A DNA stretch of 64,000 bases from Candidatus Eiseniibacteriota bacterium (GTDB lineage Bacteria; Eisenbacteria; RBG-16-71-46; JABDJR01), in assembly GCA_963762255.1 (NCBI GenBank), contig CAVXKA010000003.1:32001-96000 (forward strand), in the 5' to 3' direction. Under the pieces are notes generated by a model, which was not told the DNA's origin, ran no database searches, and was given only the letters and a program-made list of their open reading frames with translations. The first letter of the stretch is position 1, and every line of letters starts with the position of its first letter. Positions 15,667 to 61,346 of this stretch are shown piece after piece. A program made the position numbers and the translations under genes.

Positions 15667-17403
15667 TCAGGAAGCCACCAGCGTCACCCGAGCCACTTCC
15701 TCCAGGGAAGTCACGCCCAGGCGAGCCTTCGCCACCGCGTCTTTGCGGAGGGTGGACATCCCCTCCTCCACCGCACTGGCTCGCACGGTGGCGGAGTCCG
15801 CGTTCTGCAGCATGAGGCGGCGGATGCCGTCGCTCATCCGCATCAGCTCGAACACTCCGATTCGCCCCGCATACCCCACGTTCAGACAGCGCCGGCATCC
15901 CGACGCGGCGAAGAAGGGGCCCCTCTCCTCCCCGGGCTCCAGCACCCGGTTCATCAGGACCTCGTCGGGCCGCGTCTCGTGCCGGCAGTGCGGGCACAGG
16001 ATGCGCACGAGCCGCTGCGCGAGCACCGCGCGCACGCTGCTGGCCACAAGGTAGGGCTCCAGCCCCATATCGCGGAGCCGCATCAACGTCCCCGCCGCTT
16101 CCGTGGTGTGGAGCGTGGAGAAGACCAGGTGACCGGTCAGAGCGGCCCGGATGGCGATGTCCGCGGTCTCCTGGTCTCGGATCTCACCGACCATGATGAC
16201 ATCGGGATCCTGACGGAGAATGGAGCGCAGGCCGGTGGCGAAGGTCACCCCGGCGCGCGGATTCACTTGGATCTGCCCGATGCTGGGGAGCTTGTACTCG
16301 ACCGGATCCTCCACGGTTACGATGTTCAGTTCCGGGCTGTTGATCTCGTTGAGCGAGCCGTAAAGGGTCGTCGACTTGCCGCTTCCGGTGGGGCCGGTCA
16401 CGAGAAGGATGCCCCCGGGGAGGCGAATCAGGTCCCGCCAGATCCGAAGTTCGTCGGGGCCGATCCCCGTGTTGTCCAGGCCCACGAGCACGCTCCGCGA
16501 GTCCAGGATGCGCATGACCACCTTTTCCCCGCGAACGGTGGGCAGCGTGCTCACCCGCAGGTCGATTCGATGGCCGCGAAAGGTGACCGTGAACTGCCCG
16601 TCCTGTGGAGCGCGCTTCTCGGAAATGTCCATGCGGGAAAGGATCTTCACGCGCGTGACGATGCCGGAGTGCAAGGGCTTCGGAGGGTGCGCCTTGTCCT
16701 GCAAGACGCCGTCGATGCGAAACCGGACGCGAACGTGGTCATCCTCCGGTTCTATGTGGATGTCGCTCGCCCGATCCTTCAGGGCTTGATTGAGGAGGAG
16801 GTTCACGATCTTGACCACGGGGGCGTCCTCGGAGCGCGAGGCGACCTCATCCATGATCATGAGGTCCTCGTCCGTCTCGTCGAGGTCGAGATCGGTGTCG
16901 CTCTCCCGGCGTCGTGCGGCGTCCACGAAGGCCGCCTGCATCGTGGCGTTCACCGAGTAGAAGCGCGCGATGGCGTCGGTGATCTCTCCGGCGAGACCCA
17001 CCGCCGGTTTCACTTCCAAGCCGGTCAGGAACCGCACGCGGTCGATGGCCACCACGTCGAGCGGGTCCACCATGGCCACCGTCAGCCAGGAACCCCGGCG
17101 ATAGACGGGCATGATCTGTAGCTCGCGGGCGAGCGATTCCGGCACGTCATGCGTGACGTCCGAGTCGATCGACTCCTCGTCGAGTCGAATCGCCTCCACT
17201 CCGAGCACCGCGCTCCAGTGTTCGAGCACGATTTCGCGCGCCAGCCCCGCCTGGTGGACCAGGTAGTCCCCGGGTGGGTCTGCGGACTGCGCCATTCCCC
17301 TGGATAGCACATCCATTTTCTCGCGGGTCAGGTGCTTGTACTTGACGAGGCGCTCCAGGAGTTCATACCCCTGGGTATGCAAGCTGGTTTGAGGCATGGA
17401 CAA
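15667..17403 (-). CDS. pilB: Assembly ATPase PilB/GspE
   Basis: ASDIHIEP, Walker A GPTGSGKST, LRQDPDVIMVGEIRD and Zn motif CPHC...CRRC. Confidence 0.95.
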   Translation of the reverse strand: MSMPQTSLHTQGYELLERLVKYKHLTREKMDVLSRGMAQSADPPGDYLVHQAGLAREIVLEHWSAVLGVEAIRLDEESIDSDVTHDVPESLARELQIMPVYRRGSWLTVAMVDPLDVVAIDRVRFLTGLEVKPAVGLAGEITDAIARFYSVNATMQAAFVDAARRRESDTDLDLDETDEDLMIMDEVASRSEDAPVVKIVNLLLNQALKDRASDIHIEPEDDHVRVRFRIDGVLQDKAHPPKPLHSGIVTRVKILSRMDISEKRAPQDGQFTVTFRGHRIDLRVSTLPTVRGEKVVMRILDSRSVLVGLDNTGIGPDELRIWRDLIRLPGGILLVTGPTGSGKSTTLYGSLNEINSPELNIVTVEDPVEYKLPSIGQIQVNPRAGVTFATGLRSILRQDPDVIMVGEIRDQETADIAIRAALTGHLVFSTLHTTEAAGTLMRLRDMGLEPYLVASSVRAVLAQRLVRILCPHCRHETRPDEVLMNRVLEPGEERGPFFAASGCRRCLNVGYAGRIGVFELMRMSDGIRRLMLQNADSATVRASAVEEGMSTLRKDAVAKARLGVTSLEEVARVTLVAS

Positions 17404-17538
17404 CCCTCCAGATCCGGTATCGGCCTTCCAAGTACGGTCCTGAACCGCGGCCCGGCAAGCGAGGTCGGAGGCGGCCCGGGGTCGGCGGGCGAAGATTCAC
17501 CTTTGCCTCCCGCGCGCGCTTGGCTACGGTGTTGGCCC

Positions 17539-19524
17539 ATGAACCCGGCACCCAGTTCGACCCAGGCCCCCGATGCTCACTCCCCCTCGGCGAGCCGCGC
17601 CACGGCGGCGATCTGTGTGGCCGCGGCGCTTCTCATGGCATTCTTCGCAGCGGTCCCCCTGGAACGGTTTCCACACAGCGGCGACGAGTACGCCTACCAG
17701 TACCAGGCGCGCACGTTTCTCGCCGGGCGGGCGGTGAACCCCCCCGCTCCCGACCCGGCGGCGTACGAGCAGGTCCACATCATCAGCACGCCCGAGCGCA
17801 TGTACTCCAAGTACCCGCCCGGGTGGCCCGCGGTGCTGGCTGCCGGCGAGGCGGCTCGAGTTGGGTTCCTGGTCAACCCGCTCCTCGCCGCGCTCACGCT
17901 GTGGGTCGCGTTTCGCCTCGCAAGACGAGTCGCCGGCGACACCGTCGCGCTGGCGTTTCTCCTACTTCTCGCGACCAACGGGTTCTACCTGCTCAACGGC
18001 GCCACGTTCTTCTCGCACCCGATGGTCGGATTGGCGCTCGTCCTCGGACTGGATGCACTCTACCGATACAGCGCAGCGCCCCGCTCTCGGTATGCGCTCG
18101 CCGCCGGTGCGTGCCTCGGCGCGATCCTCCTCACGAGGCCTCAGGATGCGTTGCTCGTCGGCGCGGGGTTCGCCGTCGCCGGGATCGCGCTCCTGCGGCA
18201 GGCGCCCCACTCGTCACGACTCGCCCATGGTCTATCGGCGCTGATCGGTCCGGCGCTGGCCCTCGGGGCGTTCCTTCTCTACAACCGCGCAACGACCGGC
18301 GACGCCCTGCTCTTCGGCCACATCGCCCGCAGCGCGAGCGACCGGCCGACATGGAACCCGCTTGGATCGGTGCTGTCCACGGTGAACCGGCTGCAGGAAT
18401 ACGTGGTCGTCGCTTCGGTGGGATTGGCGGCGTTTCTGCTCCGGCCTCGATCTTCCGGCTCGGCCGCCGAGCGCCCGCCGGCACGCATGCTGGCCCTCGC
18501 AGCGCTCATCGTGTTCCTCTACTGGTTGGGCTACTCGACCTACACGCAGCCCGACGGCCCGCCGCGCTTCGGCCCGCGCTACCTCTATCCCGCGCACATC
18601 CTCACGTTCTTCCTGGCTGCCACCGCACTGGTGCGGTCGCTGCGACCGGGCGCGCTGCGTCCTCTATTGCTTCTCGTCGTCGCGGCGCAGCTTGTGCAGA
18701 CCGGGGTCGTGATCGACTCCGCGCACAAGACCATCCATGCCGCCACAGGGCCGGAGCGCGCGGCGAACGTGCTCGCCAAGGCGATCGCTCCCAATCGTGC
18801 GATGGTCCTCGTCGAGGGCCCGGCGGGATCCGTGCCGACGTACGATCTCATTCGCAACGGCATCGACTACACGCACCCGGTCGTATTCGTGGGGCGAGTG
18901 CCCCAGGCGGGGGCGATGGATCGCATCCCGTATCTCTGGGACGGAGCCGGCGGGCTCCCGATGCTGCGCTCCCTCGACCCGCACGCCGACGTGCAGGCCG
19001 TGGCCCTCACCCAAACCGGGGCCACCGTCCTGCGGCCCGAACCGCAGCAGGGGTGGATCGTGACCCGCGGCTCCAACCGGTGCTCGAAGTACTTCTGGGA
19101 GTTCCCCGGATCGAGGCCCACGGATTGGTCGACGCTGGGACCCTGCGGCGAGGGCATCGTGCAGGCGGGACATCCGCCCGCGCCGGGAGAAGCCTGGGAA
19201 GATACGGGGCGCAAGTGGTTCTTCGCGGTCTTTCGGACATTCCTGGATCTGGACGAACCCGGGTCCTACGCCTTCCATCTCCGCGTCGCCGGCGCGATCC
19301 GGCTCCGCCTGGATGGCCGGACGCTTCTGGAGACGCAGGCCGCAATCGGCGATTGGGCCCCGGAGATGCGTGTGGACCTCGATCCCGGCATCCACCGGGT
19401 TGAACTCTCGTACTTCACCACGCGACGGCCGGCCCTCCTCGAGTGGTCCGCGCGCGGGCCGAGCGGCGAAGAGCTGGAATCCTGGCGCTACTCCGCGCTC
19501 CGAGCGATGGCCGGACCCCGCTGA
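17539..19524 (+). CDS. GT-C glycosyltransferase (PMT/ArnT-like) with C-terminal PA14-like domain
   Basis: SGDEYAY and SKYPPGWP motifs, multiple TM helices, C-terminal PGSYAF...IRLRLDG...LDPGIHRVELSY. Confidence 0.75.
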   Translation: MNPAPSSTQAPDAHSPSASRATAAICVAAALLMAFFAAVPLERFPHSGDEYAYQYQARTFLAGRAVNPPAPDPAAYEQVHIISTPERMYSKYPPGWPAVLAAGEAARVGFLVNPLLAALTLWVAFRLARRVAGDTVALAFLLLLATNGFYLLNGATFFSHPMVGLALVLGLDALYRYSAAPRSRYALAAGACLGAILLTRPQDALLVGAGFAVAGIALLRQAPHSSRLAHGLSALIGPALALGAFLLYNRATTGDALLFGHIARSASDRPTWNPLGSVLSTVNRLQEYVVVASVGLAAFLLRPRSSGSAAERPPARMLALAALIVFLYWLGYSTYTQPDGPPRFGPRYLYPAHILTFFLAATALVRSLRPGALRPLLLLVVAAQLVQTGVVIDSAHKTIHAATGPERAANVLAKAIAPNRAMVLVEGPAGSVPTYDLIRNGIDYTHPVVFVGRVPQAGAMDRIPYLWDGAGGLPMLRSLDPHADVQAVALTQTGATVLRPEPQQGWIVTRGSNRCSKYFWEFPGSRPTDWSTLGPCGEGIVQAGHPPAPGEAWEDTGRKWFFAVFRTFLDLDEPGSYAFHLRVAGAIRLRLDGRTLLETQAAIGDWAPEMRVDLDPGIHRVELSYFTTRRPALLEWSARGPSGEELESWRYSALRAMAGPR

Positions 19525-19604
19525 CGGGAGGCCTGGAACCGGGTACAATGCCGCCCGCGGTCTCGAAGCGAGACGATCCTCCACGCCTGCACACGGGAAC
19601 GATC

Positions 19605-20255
19605 ATGAACCACTTCGAAAACCTGTTCATCGGCATCGCCGGCATGATCGGCGCCGGCAAGTCCACCCTCGCCACCTCCCTCGGCAAGCACCTCGGCATC
19701 GACGTGTACTACGAGCCGGTGGAGAACAACGAGTACCTGGAGGACTTCTACCGCGACACCAAGCGGTATTCCTTCGCCACCCAGATCTACCTCCTCAACA
19801 AGCGATTCCAGCAGCACCAGGAAATCATCTGGCGCAAGCGTCCCGCGGTGCAGGACCGCACGATCTACGAGGACTCGGTGTTCGCTAAGATGCTGGCCGA
19901 GACCGGGCTCATGGAGGAGAGGGACTACCGCACCTACGTCGAGCTGTTCCAGAACATGAGCAACTTCATGCGCAAGCCCAACGTGATCGTCTACCTGGAC
20001 GTGTCGCCGGCGCGGTCGATGGAGCGCATCAAGGCGCGGTCGCGTGGCGTGGAGAGCGGCATCACGCTCGACTACCTTCACGCTCTCCACCAGGGATACG
20101 AGGACTTCATCGCCGAGATCTCGCGCGTCATCCCGGTAATCCGCGTGGACTACGACCGGTTCGCCACCGCGGAGGAGATGACCGAGGTGATCACCCGGGA
20201 CTACCTCAAGCAGAGCTTTCTGCGCGAGGCGACGCGCTTCGATCCGGTTCGGTGA
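19605..20255 (+). CDS. Deoxynucleoside kinase (dAK/dGK family)
   Basis: GMIGAGKST P-loop, QDRTIYED and lid ERIKARSR. Confidence 0.92.
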   Translation: MNHFENLFIGIAGMIGAGKSTLATSLGKHLGIDVYYEPVENNEYLEDFYRDTKRYSFATQIYLLNKRFQQHQEIIWRKRPAVQDRTIYEDSVFAKMLAETGLMEERDYRTYVELFQNMSNFMRKPNVIVYLDVSPARSMERIKARSRGVESGITLDYLHALHQGYEDFIAEISRVIPVIRVDYDRFATAEEMTEVITRDYLKQSFLREATRFDPVR

Positions 20256-20296: not shown

Positions 20297-20851
20297 ATGC
20301 GCTTGCTTGCTCTGGTGGTCGTGGTGGTGGTCCTTGCGGTCGTGGCGGCGCCGTGTCAGGCAGCCGGGTTCCGGATCGAGGCCGAGTCGTTCATCGATGC
20401 CAACGACCTCGGCGGCACTCAGATTGTTGTTGTTGGCTGCACCTACGCATCGGGCGGGGTGGCGGTCGGGGGGCTCGACGGCCCGGGCGAGTGGATCGAG
20501 TTCCGCCTCGAACTCTCCTCCACGACCACCTTCGTCGACTCCCTCCGCAGTGCAGGTCTCGTCGGCGAGGTCCGCCACTTCAGCGTCCTCTTCCTGAGCG
20601 GAGGCGATCCCGTCGGAGCCCCCGGCGACACCGTCACAAGCGGGCCGGGTTTAGGATTCAGTTGAAGGTACTCCAATTACGACTGGGTCCAGTCGTCCCG
20701 AGTCCACACCCTCCCCGCCGGCTCCTACTCCGTCCGCGTCACCTGCCTCGACACGAGCTCCTCGCGCGTTGATTGCCTGGACTTCTCAACCAATCCGGTG
20801 GCCGTCGAGCCCGCGACCTGGGGAAGGATCAAGACCTTCTACCTGCCCTAG
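20297..20851 (+). CDS. Secreted CBM6/35-like beta-sandwich protein with in-frame TGA (20663-20665), putative selenoprotein of 184 aa with Sec123
   Basis: Signal peptide, IEAE and GEWIEF motifs. After the TGA the frame stays open for 61 codons (RYSNYDWVQ...LPAGSYSVRV...VDCLDF...VAVEPATWGRIKTFYLP) to TAG 20851. A SECIS-like hairpin follows and selC is in the window. Confidence 0.8.
20666..20705 (+). promoter_or_regulatory. Bacterial SECIS-like element
   Basis: Apical hairpin ACGACTG-GGTC-CAGTCGT (20679-20696) with the loop starting GG 20 nt after the UGA. Lower stem GG(T)ACTC/GAGTCC. Confidence 0.75.
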
Positions 20852-20867: not shown

Positions 20868-21332
20868 CTACCAGCGATGGTAGGCGGGATGGCCGGGCTG
20901 CACGGAGACGAAGGTTCCCCGGCAGGTGGCGCACACGTCTCCGTCCGCCTCCACGCTCGCTTCCACCTCGGCGCGGTTCCCATCCACGGAAACAACGCGG
21001 GCCCGCAGCGTGAGCATGCGGTCGGAAGGTGTCGGCTTGCGGAGCTTGATCGCGTACTGCGCCGTCACCGTGCTCGGCAGATGGTCGAGGCCCTGCGTCT
21101 CCATGAGGCGTAGCGCCGCCGCCCAGTTGGAGTGGCAGTCCATAAGGGCGCCGATGATCCCGCCGTTGAGCGATCCAGGGAAAGCCTGATGATGCGGTTC
21201 CGGTTTCCACGTCGCCAGCAACTCCTCCCCGTGGAGGAAACTTCGAATGCGCAGCCCTTTCGGGTTGGCCGGGCCGCATCCGAAGCAGATGTTGTCGGGG
21301 GCGTAACGCTCCTGCACGCTTTGTTCGGTCAT
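20868..21332 (-). CDS. PaaI-family hotdog thioesterase
   Basis: CFGCGPANPKGL and HHQAFPGSLNGGIIGALMDCH motifs. Confidence 0.9.
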   Translation of the reverse strand: MTEQSVQERYAPDNICFGCGPANPKGLRIRSFLHGEELLATWKPEPHHQAFPGSLNGGIIGALMDCHSNWAAALRLMETQGLDHLPSTVTAQYAIKLRKPTPSDRMLTLRARVVSVDGNRAEVEASVEADGDVCATCRGTFVSVQPGHPAYHRW

Positions 21333-61248: not shown

Positions 61249-61346
61249 TGGCGGAGACGTGTGGGAATCGAACCCACCCCGAGCGTGATTAGCGCCCGGC
61301 ATAAGGATTTGAAGTCCTCGAGGCCCACCAGGGCCCGTTCGTCCCC
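61249..61346 (-). tRNA. selC: tRNA-Sec(TCA)
   Basis: 98 nt, anticodon loop CTTCAAA, 6-bp D stem with 4-nt loop (GGGCCC-TGGT-GGGCCT), long variable arm and GCCA end. Confidence 0.95.

Follow-up and report, generated by a model that had tools for sequence, protein, structure and literature searches.

Does the TGA codon at positions 20663-20665 of a 64,000-nucleotide stretch of DNA from a Candidatus Eiseniibacteriota genome end a short gene, or does it encode selenocysteine (Sec, U) within a longer one? The stretch, hereafter the window, corresponds to G000:C3:32001-96000, G000 being the window's own genome, a 4.14-Mb assembly in 3 contigs. In a list of open reading frames (ORFs) made with translation table 11, an ORF beginning at GTG 20252 ends with this TGA at 20665. 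However, when read from the ATG at 20297, which is equivalent to the Met at which the homologues start, the frame continues past the TGA for 61 further codons up to the TAG at 20849-20851. The initial annotation of the window had pointed out that the ORF caller ended at the TGA and that the frame stayed open for 61 codons more, and all of its coordinates proved to be correct. With TGA translated as U, the product has 184 residues and U123 lies within GLGFS-U-RYSNYDWVQSS. Based on the comparisons described below, we consider it very probable that UGA123 is decoded as Sec via the standard bacterial route and is directed by a hairpin downstream; this judgement concerns the identity as a selenoprotein and the mechanism of decoding, not the function.

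Homologues were sought in a phylum set of 206 genomes by six-frame and profile searches that read through stops. The six-frame search revealed that the gene is single-copy in its own genome and located 8 further places among 60 relatives, each having one TGA, and the profile search of all 206 genomes gave matches in 23 genomes. Exactly one in-frame TGA was present at 23 places (the window gene included; two are cut by contig ends), which were distributed over 19 genomes, 16 genera and 8 families. The U was found throughout in the motif G-x-G-x-G/S/T-U, followed 4 or 5 residues later by Y/W-D-W-V/A/S-Q-S. The other profile matches were two full-length copies free of stops (L047 in G063 and L050 in G154), one short form in G006, and two matches confined to a C-terminal tag that is described below. 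Both stop-free copies had Cys in the Sec column, with L047 reading ...GTGVN-C-PVVFGWVHS... and L050 reading ...GGGVW-C-VDAVYDCVRS.... It was also noticed that 14 of the 22 homologues having a terminal stop used TGA for it, where the window gene has TAG. In G063, the Cys form L047 and a Sec paralogue (L058) are arranged in tandem (G063:C13:67535-68689), providing a natural pair for Sec/Cys comparison. The idea that the Cys form is tied to loss of Sec decoding was dropped because G154 keeps a SelA fragment and G063 has both forms. As for the short form in G006 (L014:1471-1833, identical to L052), its 121 residues comprise the domain up to approximately residue 97 joined straight to a WGRIKSLY tag, without the whole Sec loop and the C-terminal strands, and it may be a deletion derivative.

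A profile search of 1.84 billion protein cluster representatives detected 473 at E <= 1e-3, of which 171 had E <= 1e-10 and 10 had E <= 1e-30. From the best 150 of the 473, 149 were aligned to a hidden Markov model of the 23-sequence alignment, with the truncated form P0009 left out. Among these 149, 126 ended without anything after the Sec column, including 105 that stopped at the Sec column or one column before it (78 exactly there at their own C-terminus). Seventeen read through, with Cys in the Sec column of 16 and Asn in that of one, the latter being a 1613-aa true CBM6 protein in which Pfam identified a seven-fold CBM_6 repeat. Of the remaining six sequences, three short proteins (P0132, P0156 and P0157) correspond to the part after the TGA annotated as an ORF of its own, and three are multidomain proteins that matched only in part. 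In a collection of 5.8 billion sequences, all 10 of 10 matches covered 66% or less of the query and ended on the Gly-rich motif directly before the Sec column. No Trp was found in the Sec column among the genomic homologues or the aligned representatives. The residue at the site, which the initial annotation had singled out for checking, is therefore TGA or Cys in the homologues and never Trp.

These data bear on the alternative that the TGA is a true stop, either in a nonsense-mutated pseudogene or between two ORFs, the downstream frame being open by chance in GC-rich DNA. Table-11 gene calls do end there, long spurious frames are common in this genome, and the databases hold the short post-TGA ORFs mentioned above. 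Nevertheless, the same TGA recurs at 23 places in 16 genera with the downstream protein conserved in frame, 18 independent homologues that read through have Cys in place of the stop, and the C-terminal 61 residues supply β-strands required by the fold, modelled with a predicted local distance difference test score (pLDDT) of 86-96. A true stop is thus extremely improbable.

If the UGA encodes Sec, a selenocysteine insertion sequence (SECIS) would be expected close behind it. The initial annotation had described a hairpin, ACGACTG-GGTC-CAGTCGT, with its loop 20 nt past the UGA, and we located it at exactly that position. The bacterial SECIS (bSECIS) model requires a loop of 3-9 nt, a stem of 4-16 bp, G in the first two loop positions, a spacing of 16-37 nt and a minimum free energy of -7.5 kcal/mol or lower (PMC13188914), and the window hairpin lies within all four bSECIS criteria in section 5 of that paper. 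Its core, GACTGGGnnCAGTC, occurs once in the 4.14-Mb genome. Taken singly, a 66-nt stretch containing the hairpin folds with -15.2 kcal/mol (z = -1.02), and 29 of 200 shuffled sequences folded at least as well. Since this single fold is unremarkable, the case for the hairpin must rest on comparison across homologues.

When the constraints of PMC13188914 were applied with a minimum stem of 6 bp, a hairpin (stem 6-8 bp, G in the first two loop positions, spacing 17-23 nt) was present after the internal TGA in 23 of 23 copies but after only 2 of the 14 TGA codons that terminate these genes. A core of (A/G)(C/G)GACUG-loop-CAGUC(G/C) was common to 22 of the 23 copies, with the loop starting 17 or 20 nt past the UGA and consisting mostly of GGUC, elsewhere of GGCU, GGUU or GUCU. 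The most divergent copy, L044 (about 25% identity), had another hairpin, GGCCGC-CGGGA-GCGGCC, at 23 nt. Pairing was examined in an alignment of 20 Sec forms, leaving out L033 (identical to L034 in this region), L051 (runs off its contig) and L044 (different hairpin). In this alignment, 95% of the paired cells could pair, versus 15-49% when the 3′ arm was slid, and RNAalifold, with no structure supplied, recovered the same six pairs at -8.54 kcal/mol. Pair 18-33 was C-G in 18 rows and G-C in 2, a compensatory change of which L051, outside the alignment, is a third copy; pair 17-34 showed one A-U to G-C change and was unpaired in 7 rows. At the protein level, the C-G to G-C change at pair 18-33 corresponds to Tyr TAC becoming Trp TGG together with a synonymous Ser change from TCG to TCC, and such coupling of a Tyr-to-Trp with a silent Ser change would be hard to explain by selection on the protein.

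Codon usage agreed with the pairing data. Codons were counted in 19 full-length Sec forms; L033, L044, L051 and L059 (the last two partial) and the two Cys forms were left out. Those of the hairpin were TAC in 18/18, GAC in 19/19, GTC in 15/16, CAG in 19/19 and TCG in 18/19. Equally conserved columns elsewhere in the gene were mixed, with two Asp columns having GAC 10/GAT 7 and GAT 11/GAC 8, a Tyr column having TAC 14/TAT 4 and a Ser column having TCG 7/TCC 4/TCA 2/TCT 1/AGT 1. When 34 degenerate conserved columns were ranked by codon fixation, the five hairpin columns were all within the top six. The element has decayed in the Cys forms: the hairpin of L047 is broken with two pairs left, and that of L050 keeps five pairs but has C for the loop G (CGUC). 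The peptide YDWVQS is likewise gone from most of the Cys-form database proteins among the best 150 of the 473. Because the codons are frozen in Sec forms and the element decays in Cys forms, conservation of YDWVQS in the Sec forms appears to be largely a shadow of the RNA element. The covarying hairpin that the initial annotation had proposed to look for is thus kept with a compensatory change in Sec forms and lost or altered in Cys forms. An Rfam scan of 20560-20800 (E <= 10) returned four chance-level matches and no SECIS family, the bacterial SECIS models in Rfam being for specific families only. A genome-wide scan for TGA followed by a G-loop hairpin in long open frames was abandoned, as the 798 candidates obtained offered no discrimination in GC-rich DNA.

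The machinery required for Sec insertion was found to be complete. Apart from the tRNA-Sec within the window, the genome contains SelA (E 1e-143), SelB, whose winged-helix domain was matched (E 5e-18) in a 644-aa open frame, and SelD (E 2e-115; G000:C2:841489-842421, minus strand, locus L003), all over curated cut-offs. Thus, the tRNA reported by the initial annotation, together with the selA, selB and selD genes that it had suggested looking for, are all present. The selD gene has one in-frame TGA of its own (...SHGAG-U-ACK...), and the hairpin after that UGA bears no obvious likeness to the GGUC-loop hairpin; no SECIS consensus for the genome as a whole is claimed for this reason. Within the phylum, SelA was detected in 189 of the 206 genomes, a tally that includes the unpublished genome G054 (188 of 205 without it); among the high-quality genomes the figure was 117 of 121. 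The ability to decode Sec thus seems nearly universal across this candidate phylum, of which no mention was found in the selenoproteome papers searched.

These observations also bear on the possibility that a residue other than Sec is inserted at the UGA, be it under a reassigned code (Trp, Gly) or by SECIS-independent near-cognate read-through. The frame would indeed be open under such codes. Against this, 14 of the 22 homologues with a terminal stop end in TGA, the homologues without the internal TGA have Cys rather than Trp or Gly, the hairpin accompanies the internal TGA only, and the Sec machinery is complete; we consider this explanation very improbable.

Independent sequence was available in the form of a 419-nt Logan contig from a metatranscriptomic library of another study, which spans 20372-20787 with 22 differences, none of them at the TGA or at 20679-20696. 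This contig is from a close relative and bridges the UGA. As to the raw-read support for the TGA proposed by the initial annotation, this contig from an RNA library keeps the TGA. The DNA sequencing runs X2-X4 reach only stretches of the gene that precede the codon and are silent about it.

Several points weigh against the decoding of UGA123 as Sec. The case is wholly comparative. The contig from the RNA library may stem from contaminating DNA and is silent on translation. In addition to the single-sequence fold being no better than that of shuffled sequences, five of the seven stem pairs, the inner ones, are invariant, so that covariation rests on few changes. All three occurrences of the C-G to G-C change are in a single taxonomic family (two genomes) and possibly reflect one or two events. 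Rfam has no model for the hairpin, to which we give little weight.

To what kind of protein does Sec123 belong? An AlphaFold2 model built on the 23-sequence alignment had a pLDDT of 82.8 and a predicted template modelling score of 0.76, with the strands past residue 123 at pLDDT 86-96. Foldseek assigned it to CBM6/35/36 with a probability of 1.00, and VIA-align placed residues 22-167 there, the best match being 2cdo_B (Z 17.4, rmsd [root-mean-square deviation] 2.0 Å, 131 residues aligned to a 137-residue chain). The best 50 structure entries were CBM6/35/36 modules and structurally related domains, and the family profile reached true CBM6 repeat proteins with E values of about 1e-14 to 1e-17. 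These results bear out the CBM6-like fold suggested by the initial annotation. Pfam, including the CBM_6 (PF03422) and CBM_35 models, gave no match at E <= 1 for the window protein, and CBM_6/CBM_35 gave none at E <= 0.01 for the Cys forms P0013, P0014, P0017 and P0020. A search of the PDB sequences with the family profile returned 8zvk only (E 0.1), which was used as an alignment hint. The window protein and the CBM6/CBM35/CBM36 modules of 2cdo, 5fui, 2w1w, 1uxz and 2y8k share a β-sandwich that superposes along almost the entire module (Z 15-17, rmsd about 2 Å), an N-terminal I-E-A-E strand, a G-D/E-W motif and a C-terminal R-x-D strand.

The putative former ligand site, judged by alignment, differs from that of CBM6/35. 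According to PMC10284105, the loops that run between the two sheets of CBM6 harbour cleft A; in CtGH11-CBM6, Tyr34 and Trp92 stack on the ligand while Asn93 and Asn120 form hydrogen bonds, and Trp424 and Phe478 are the equivalents of the stacking pair in CtGH5-CBM6. Alignment of the P0134 CBM6 repeat, which the hidden Markov model had aligned to the family, with 2y8k/5la2 placed its two Trp on chain indices 391 and 445, which with an offset of +33 are the published Trp424 and Phe478. With this numbering, Trp92/Phe478 corresponds to family residue 122, which is G in 13, S in 5, T in 3, N in 1 and W in 1 of 23 sequences, the lone Trp being that of the Cys form L050. Asn93 corresponds by alignment to Sec123, and Tyr34/Trp424 to the invariant G59 or to L/V/M/F60, this placement being ambiguous by one column. 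Therefore, alignment of residues 59/60 and 122 indicates that cleft A lacks both aromatic platforms and that the family departs from CBM6/35 in having no aromatic pair and in having Sec at the position of Asn93. We infer that Sec, at the tip of a loop rich in Gly (P-G-x-G-x-G/S/T-U), would take a position of ligand contact. Another difference from CBM6/35 is that the family domain occurs alone or with Ig, fn3 and FlgD-type domains, and no glycoside hydrolase was seen.

The initial annotation had named Cys48, Cys150 and Cys160 as possible partners of Sec123. Only the first of them held up: Cys48 is Cys in 21 of 23 aligned homologues, whereas Cys150 was rejected, being present in the window protein only, and Cys160 was rejected because it alternates with L, F, V and Y, which makes it a core, buried position. 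The two exceptions at Cys48, L037 and L042, have D-x-H-A-S instead of C-x-x-A-S and carry a Cys at Sec+2 (U-A-C and U-T-C). The database proteins P0055, P0072, P0074, P0087, P0095 and P0101 belong to this D-x-H-A-S subfamily as well. In L040, L043, L057 and L044, Cys48 and Sec are the sole Cys-type residues of the domain. Comparison of the aligned sequences thus suggests that Cys48 is the likely partner of Sec123. Some observations detract from this pairing. The proximity of the two residues is deduced from alignment and co-occurrence, loop indels leave the mapping of Cys48 uncertain by 1-2 residues, and the U-x-C compensation rests on two sequences (2/2). Moreover, in the Cys form P0014 the Cys48 column is occupied by Ile and position +2 is not Cys, which does not fit a strictly obligatory pair. 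Two metagenome scans for further members without Cys48 found no relative, and the phylum profile search found only the known places.

Several features support a location of the protein outside the cytoplasm. The hydrophobic leader, equivalents of which are present in the homologues, was modelled as a helix at residues 3-15. A second pair of Cys (residues 78 and 138 of the window protein) is found at both positions in 15 of 23 sequences and at neither in the other 8, but never singly; because the pair is present or absent together, it is interpreted as a structural disulfide and as a sign of an oxidising, extracytoplasmic location. Export, as claimed by the initial annotation, is hence supported by the leader, the covarying disulfide pair and the sorting modules of homologues described below. 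Processing as a lipoprotein was not adopted, since Cys20 occurs only in close relatives and is preceded by Pro, which speaks against it.

The C-terminus carries a recognisable motif, as the initial annotation had remarked, and the same tag was found at 38 C-terminal sites across the genome. In a six-frame translation, W-G/S-x-[IVL]-[KR]-x-x-[YF] occurred 41 times, 38 of them 6 residues or fewer from a stop. The tag nearly always follows P-V-x-x-x-S/T-T, the fuller form being P-V-x-x-x-S/T-T-W-G-[RKQA]-[IVL]-K-x-x-[YF] with 0-6 residues before the stop. Besides the window gene, it is located at 37 other places of G000 (for example C1:1654099, C1:1655152, C3:324762, C3:325712 and C3:328976), making about 38 ORFs in all. 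Judged from this distribution, the tag looks like a lineage-specific sorting or anchoring signal; no published name for it was found. Some homologues without the tag run on into a C-terminal extension. The equivalent region of P0015, a Cys form from the database, matches FlgD_ig, with Por_Secre_tail just under the cut-off. Further fusions place the domain behind fn3 domains or with Ig-like domains (P0008, precomputed). Fusions to Cys-rich repeats of the form G-A-C-C-x-x-D-G-S-C...C-D-P-N-P-C were also observed, with five copies N-terminal to the domain in G039 (L009:58-1221, minus strand) and one copy between domain and tag in G022 (L012:1441-2136, plus strand).

What might an exported Sec on such a scaffold do? 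A clue is provided by the neighbouring genes. At 9 of 21 loci (L035, L037, L038, L039, L040, L047, L048, L049 and L050), belonging to five taxonomic families and including both Cys forms, a divergent gene immediately upstream encodes an AhpC/TSA-Redoxin domain; in L038 the two divergent start codons are about 100 nt apart. The neighbour has a leader, an invariant W-N-R-G/D-C-P-x-C-T and a conserved C-terminal region of about 450 aa (...LLLQRWDxxDAPPLGGxSGC...) with no Pfam match. It resembles TlpA/ResA-type oxidoreductases in having an AhpC/TSA-Redoxin C-P-x-C domain behind a signal or membrane segment, but differs from them by the long conserved region fused to it. Pairing with dedicated substrates is typical of TlpA/ResA-type reductases; here, the relation to a substrate is putative and the genes are unlinked in G000. 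The single TlpA-like orthologue of G000 (C3:671477-672796; region C3:671096-673403, equal to L094:2597-4903; P0161) is about 620 kb off, and it appears therefore that linkage was lost in G000 and its near relatives. A P-type ATPase adjoins this orthologue in G000, as a single observation. A functional link to the selenoprotein is weakened by the TlpA-like gene being non-adjacent in G000 and at 12 of the 21 loci, some of which have short flanks. Complex prediction for a Cys-form domain and the TlpA-like domain of its neighbour gave a score of 0.00, which counts neither for nor against binding.

We tentatively prefer a mechanism based on a surface redox-active Cys-Sec centre with the TlpA-like protein as reductant, while regarding it as somewhat short of probable. 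By computation, the mature protein consists of a CBM6/CBM35-type β-sandwich and a short C-terminal tag. The canonical sugar cleft A would have been remodelled by replacement of its stacking aromatics with small or aliphatic residues, with Sec123 at the next ligand-contact position. Sec123 would act as a pair with Cys48, forming a cell-surface redox-active selenylsulfide/selenolate-thiolate centre, and an exported TlpA-like C-P-x-C thiol-disulfide oxidoreductase would keep this centre reduced or recycle it. More generally, we infer from the sequence comparisons an extracytoplasmic Cys-Sec site for redox chemistry or capture.

Two other functions were considered, and the redox centre was placed before both mainly because of the conserved TlpA-like pairing. 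In the first, Cys48 and Sec123 would form a surface site for soft metals or metalloids (e.g. Cu(I), Zn, Ni, Hg, As), with the TlpA-like neighbour keeping the ligands reduced. TlpA keeps the thiols of copper chaperones reduced, and an exported C-P-x-C neighbour is present here. Two conserved chalcogen residues are located on loops of the former ligand cleft, CBM35/CBM36 relatives of the fold are titled calcium-dependent binders, and a catalogue of prokaryotic selenoproteins contains several metal-related ones with CU, UxC or UxxC motifs (PMC13188914). Yet there is no conserved His/Asp/Met cluster, the other invariant residues being Gly, E28, E30 and D159, and no metal transporter or chaperone is a conserved neighbour, the P-type ATPase having been seen once. 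A metal site is rather unlikely; the metal and redox readings are not exclusive. In the second, Sec123 would be engaged in a purely structural selenylsulfide with Cys48 that stiffens the loops of an ordinary glycan-binding module. The CBM6 fold, the second, clearly structural disulfide in 15 of 23 sequences, and fusions to fn3, Ig-like and FlgD_ig domains, which are typical of surface glycan-binding proteins, would agree with this. On the other side, both stacking aromatics of cleft A are replaced, the redoxin neighbour is conserved, and Sec, which is costly, is kept in about 105 truncated calls versus 16 Cys forms among the 149 aligned representatives, for which a structural bond alone gives no explanation; such a bond is accordingly improbable.

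The positions of the features discussed are given in the table. Upstream of the gene in the window is a deoxynucleoside kinase gene (19443-20255, plus strand; PF01712, E 6e-53), which is also upstream in the congener G001, and downstream is a gene resembling the 4HBT thioesterase superfamily (20868-21332, minus strand). No functional link of either flank to the selenoprotein is apparent, and they are uninformative. A 730-aa open frame just upstream (17332-19524, plus strand) has many hydrophobic segments in its N-terminal part.

Table. Coordinates of the selenoprotein gene of the window, its parts and associated features (window positions unless a locus is named)
Feature	Position	Strand	Basis or remark
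Very probable selenoprotein gene	20297..20851	+	184 codons and TAG stop; UGA-Sec is codon 123; full-length in-frame homologues
Predicted signal peptide, residues 1-23 (MRLLALVVVVVVLAVVAAPCQAA)	20297..20365	+	Hydrophobic leader; homologues with equivalent leaders; putative cleavage site
CBM6/CBM35-type β-sandwich domain, residues 24-165	20366..20791	+	Model, Foldseek, VIA-align, family profile
Cys48 codon TGC, putative partner of Sec123	20438..20440	+	Cys in 21/23 aligned homologues
UGA for Sec123 (very probable)	20663..20665	+	TGA in one motif at 23 places; Cys in both stop-free genomic homologues
SECIS hairpin (very probable)	20679..20696	+	7-bp stem ACGACUG/CAGUCGU, loop GGUC 20686-20689, 20 nt past UGA; encodes YDWVQS
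C-terminal tag PVAVEPATWGRIKTFYLP, residues 167-184, candidate sorting/anchoring signal	20795..20848	+	Motif mostly C-terminal in genome
tRNA-Sec (anticodon TCA), UGA decoder	61249..61346	-	ARAGORN
TlpA-like neighbour, example	L038:889-1374	-	Exported C-P-x-C domain

Is the family already known? A 2026 catalogue lists 119 prokaryotic selenoprotein families or subfamilies with their defining models, none of them carbohydrate-binding or lectin-type (PMC13188914, Table 1). The window protein matched zero Pfam and zero NCBIfam families at E <= 1, and the same was true of four relatives with NCBIfam, a scan that covers the models cited in PMC13188914 for Haft and Gwadz 2023. Catalogue entries defined by cd or PTHR identifiers were set apart by their names only, which are thioredoxin-like, Fe-S, CopZ-like and BtuF (PMC13188914). 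No CBM, carbohydrate-binding, secreted or Eisenbacteria selenoprotein was found in PMC13188914, PMC13326102 and PMC12013277, a scope outside which Haft and Gwadz 2023 and the BSepDB/deep-Sep supplements lie, and a full-text literature search yielded nothing relevant on selenoproteins or selenocysteine with carbohydrate-binding, CBM6 or Eisenbacteria. The opinion of the initial annotation that this is not a described selenoprotein family agrees with the Pfam and NCBIfam scans and with the 119-family catalogue.

Comparison with known systems revealed likeness in decoding and difference in the protein. As in the bacterial selenoproteins with a bSECIS inside the ORF, of which FdhA/FdhF is the prototype, there is a UGA with a downstream stem-loop, a loop with G first and a 20-nt spacing, accompanied by Sec/Cys homologue pairs, tRNA-Sec, SelA, SelB and SelD. 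Unlike the catalogued selenoproteins (PMC13188914), from whose models it is distinct, the window family has a lectin-type β-sandwich rather than a thioredoxin-like or enzyme fold, most of its members are without CxxU or UxxC, and the window protein is exported and has a C-terminal tag. The FCYXU-motif TonB-dependent receptor, the SaoB/SaoX substrate-binding proteins and DsbA/DsbG-like proteins would, judging from their names (PMC13188914), likewise be extracytoplasmic selenoproteins, and the window protein may share with them a role in binding or redox chemistry. Their folds and families are unrelated and have no sequence match to the window family. Decoding follows the canonical mechanism, and what is new is the scaffold, its location and where Sec is placed.

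On the evidence of these comparisons, the window gene is apparently the founding example of a large, undescribed selenoprotein family that has been systematically mis-annotated. At least about 105 of the 149 best clusters are stored as "hypothetical proteins" of about 120-140 aa without one third of the fold, and once the Sec codon is recognised, annotation is corrected throughout an entire candidate phylum. The family, at about 470 clusters at 50% identity, would if true rank with the larger selenoprotein families that present catalogues lack, and it may be used to test how tools for selenoprotein prediction perform on lineages known from metagenomes. It also illustrates cleanly, in nature, how the sequence of a protein can be dictated by an RNA element, as YDWVQS decays once Sec is replaced by Cys. 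Going further, it is possible, though still speculative, that the gene is the founding member of an extracytoplasmic selenium-dependent system in which the sugar cleft of a CBM6 scaffold was turned into a Cys-Sec reactive centre served by a dedicated TlpA-like reductase. Such a system would jointly involve display at the surface via the tag or a FlgD- or type IX secretion system-type domain, a reductase fused to a large uncharacterised domain, and the capture or transformation of an extracellular chalcogen, metal or thiol-bearing ligand instead of glycan binding. By the reading of the catalogue (PMC13188914), this would, if true, be the first selenoprotein with a carbohydrate-binding-module fold. 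The selenoproteome would gain a non-thioredoxin, non-enzyme, lectin-type scaffold with Sec outside the cytoplasm at a former ligand site, which raises the question of the role of an extracellular selenolate on a CBM fold.

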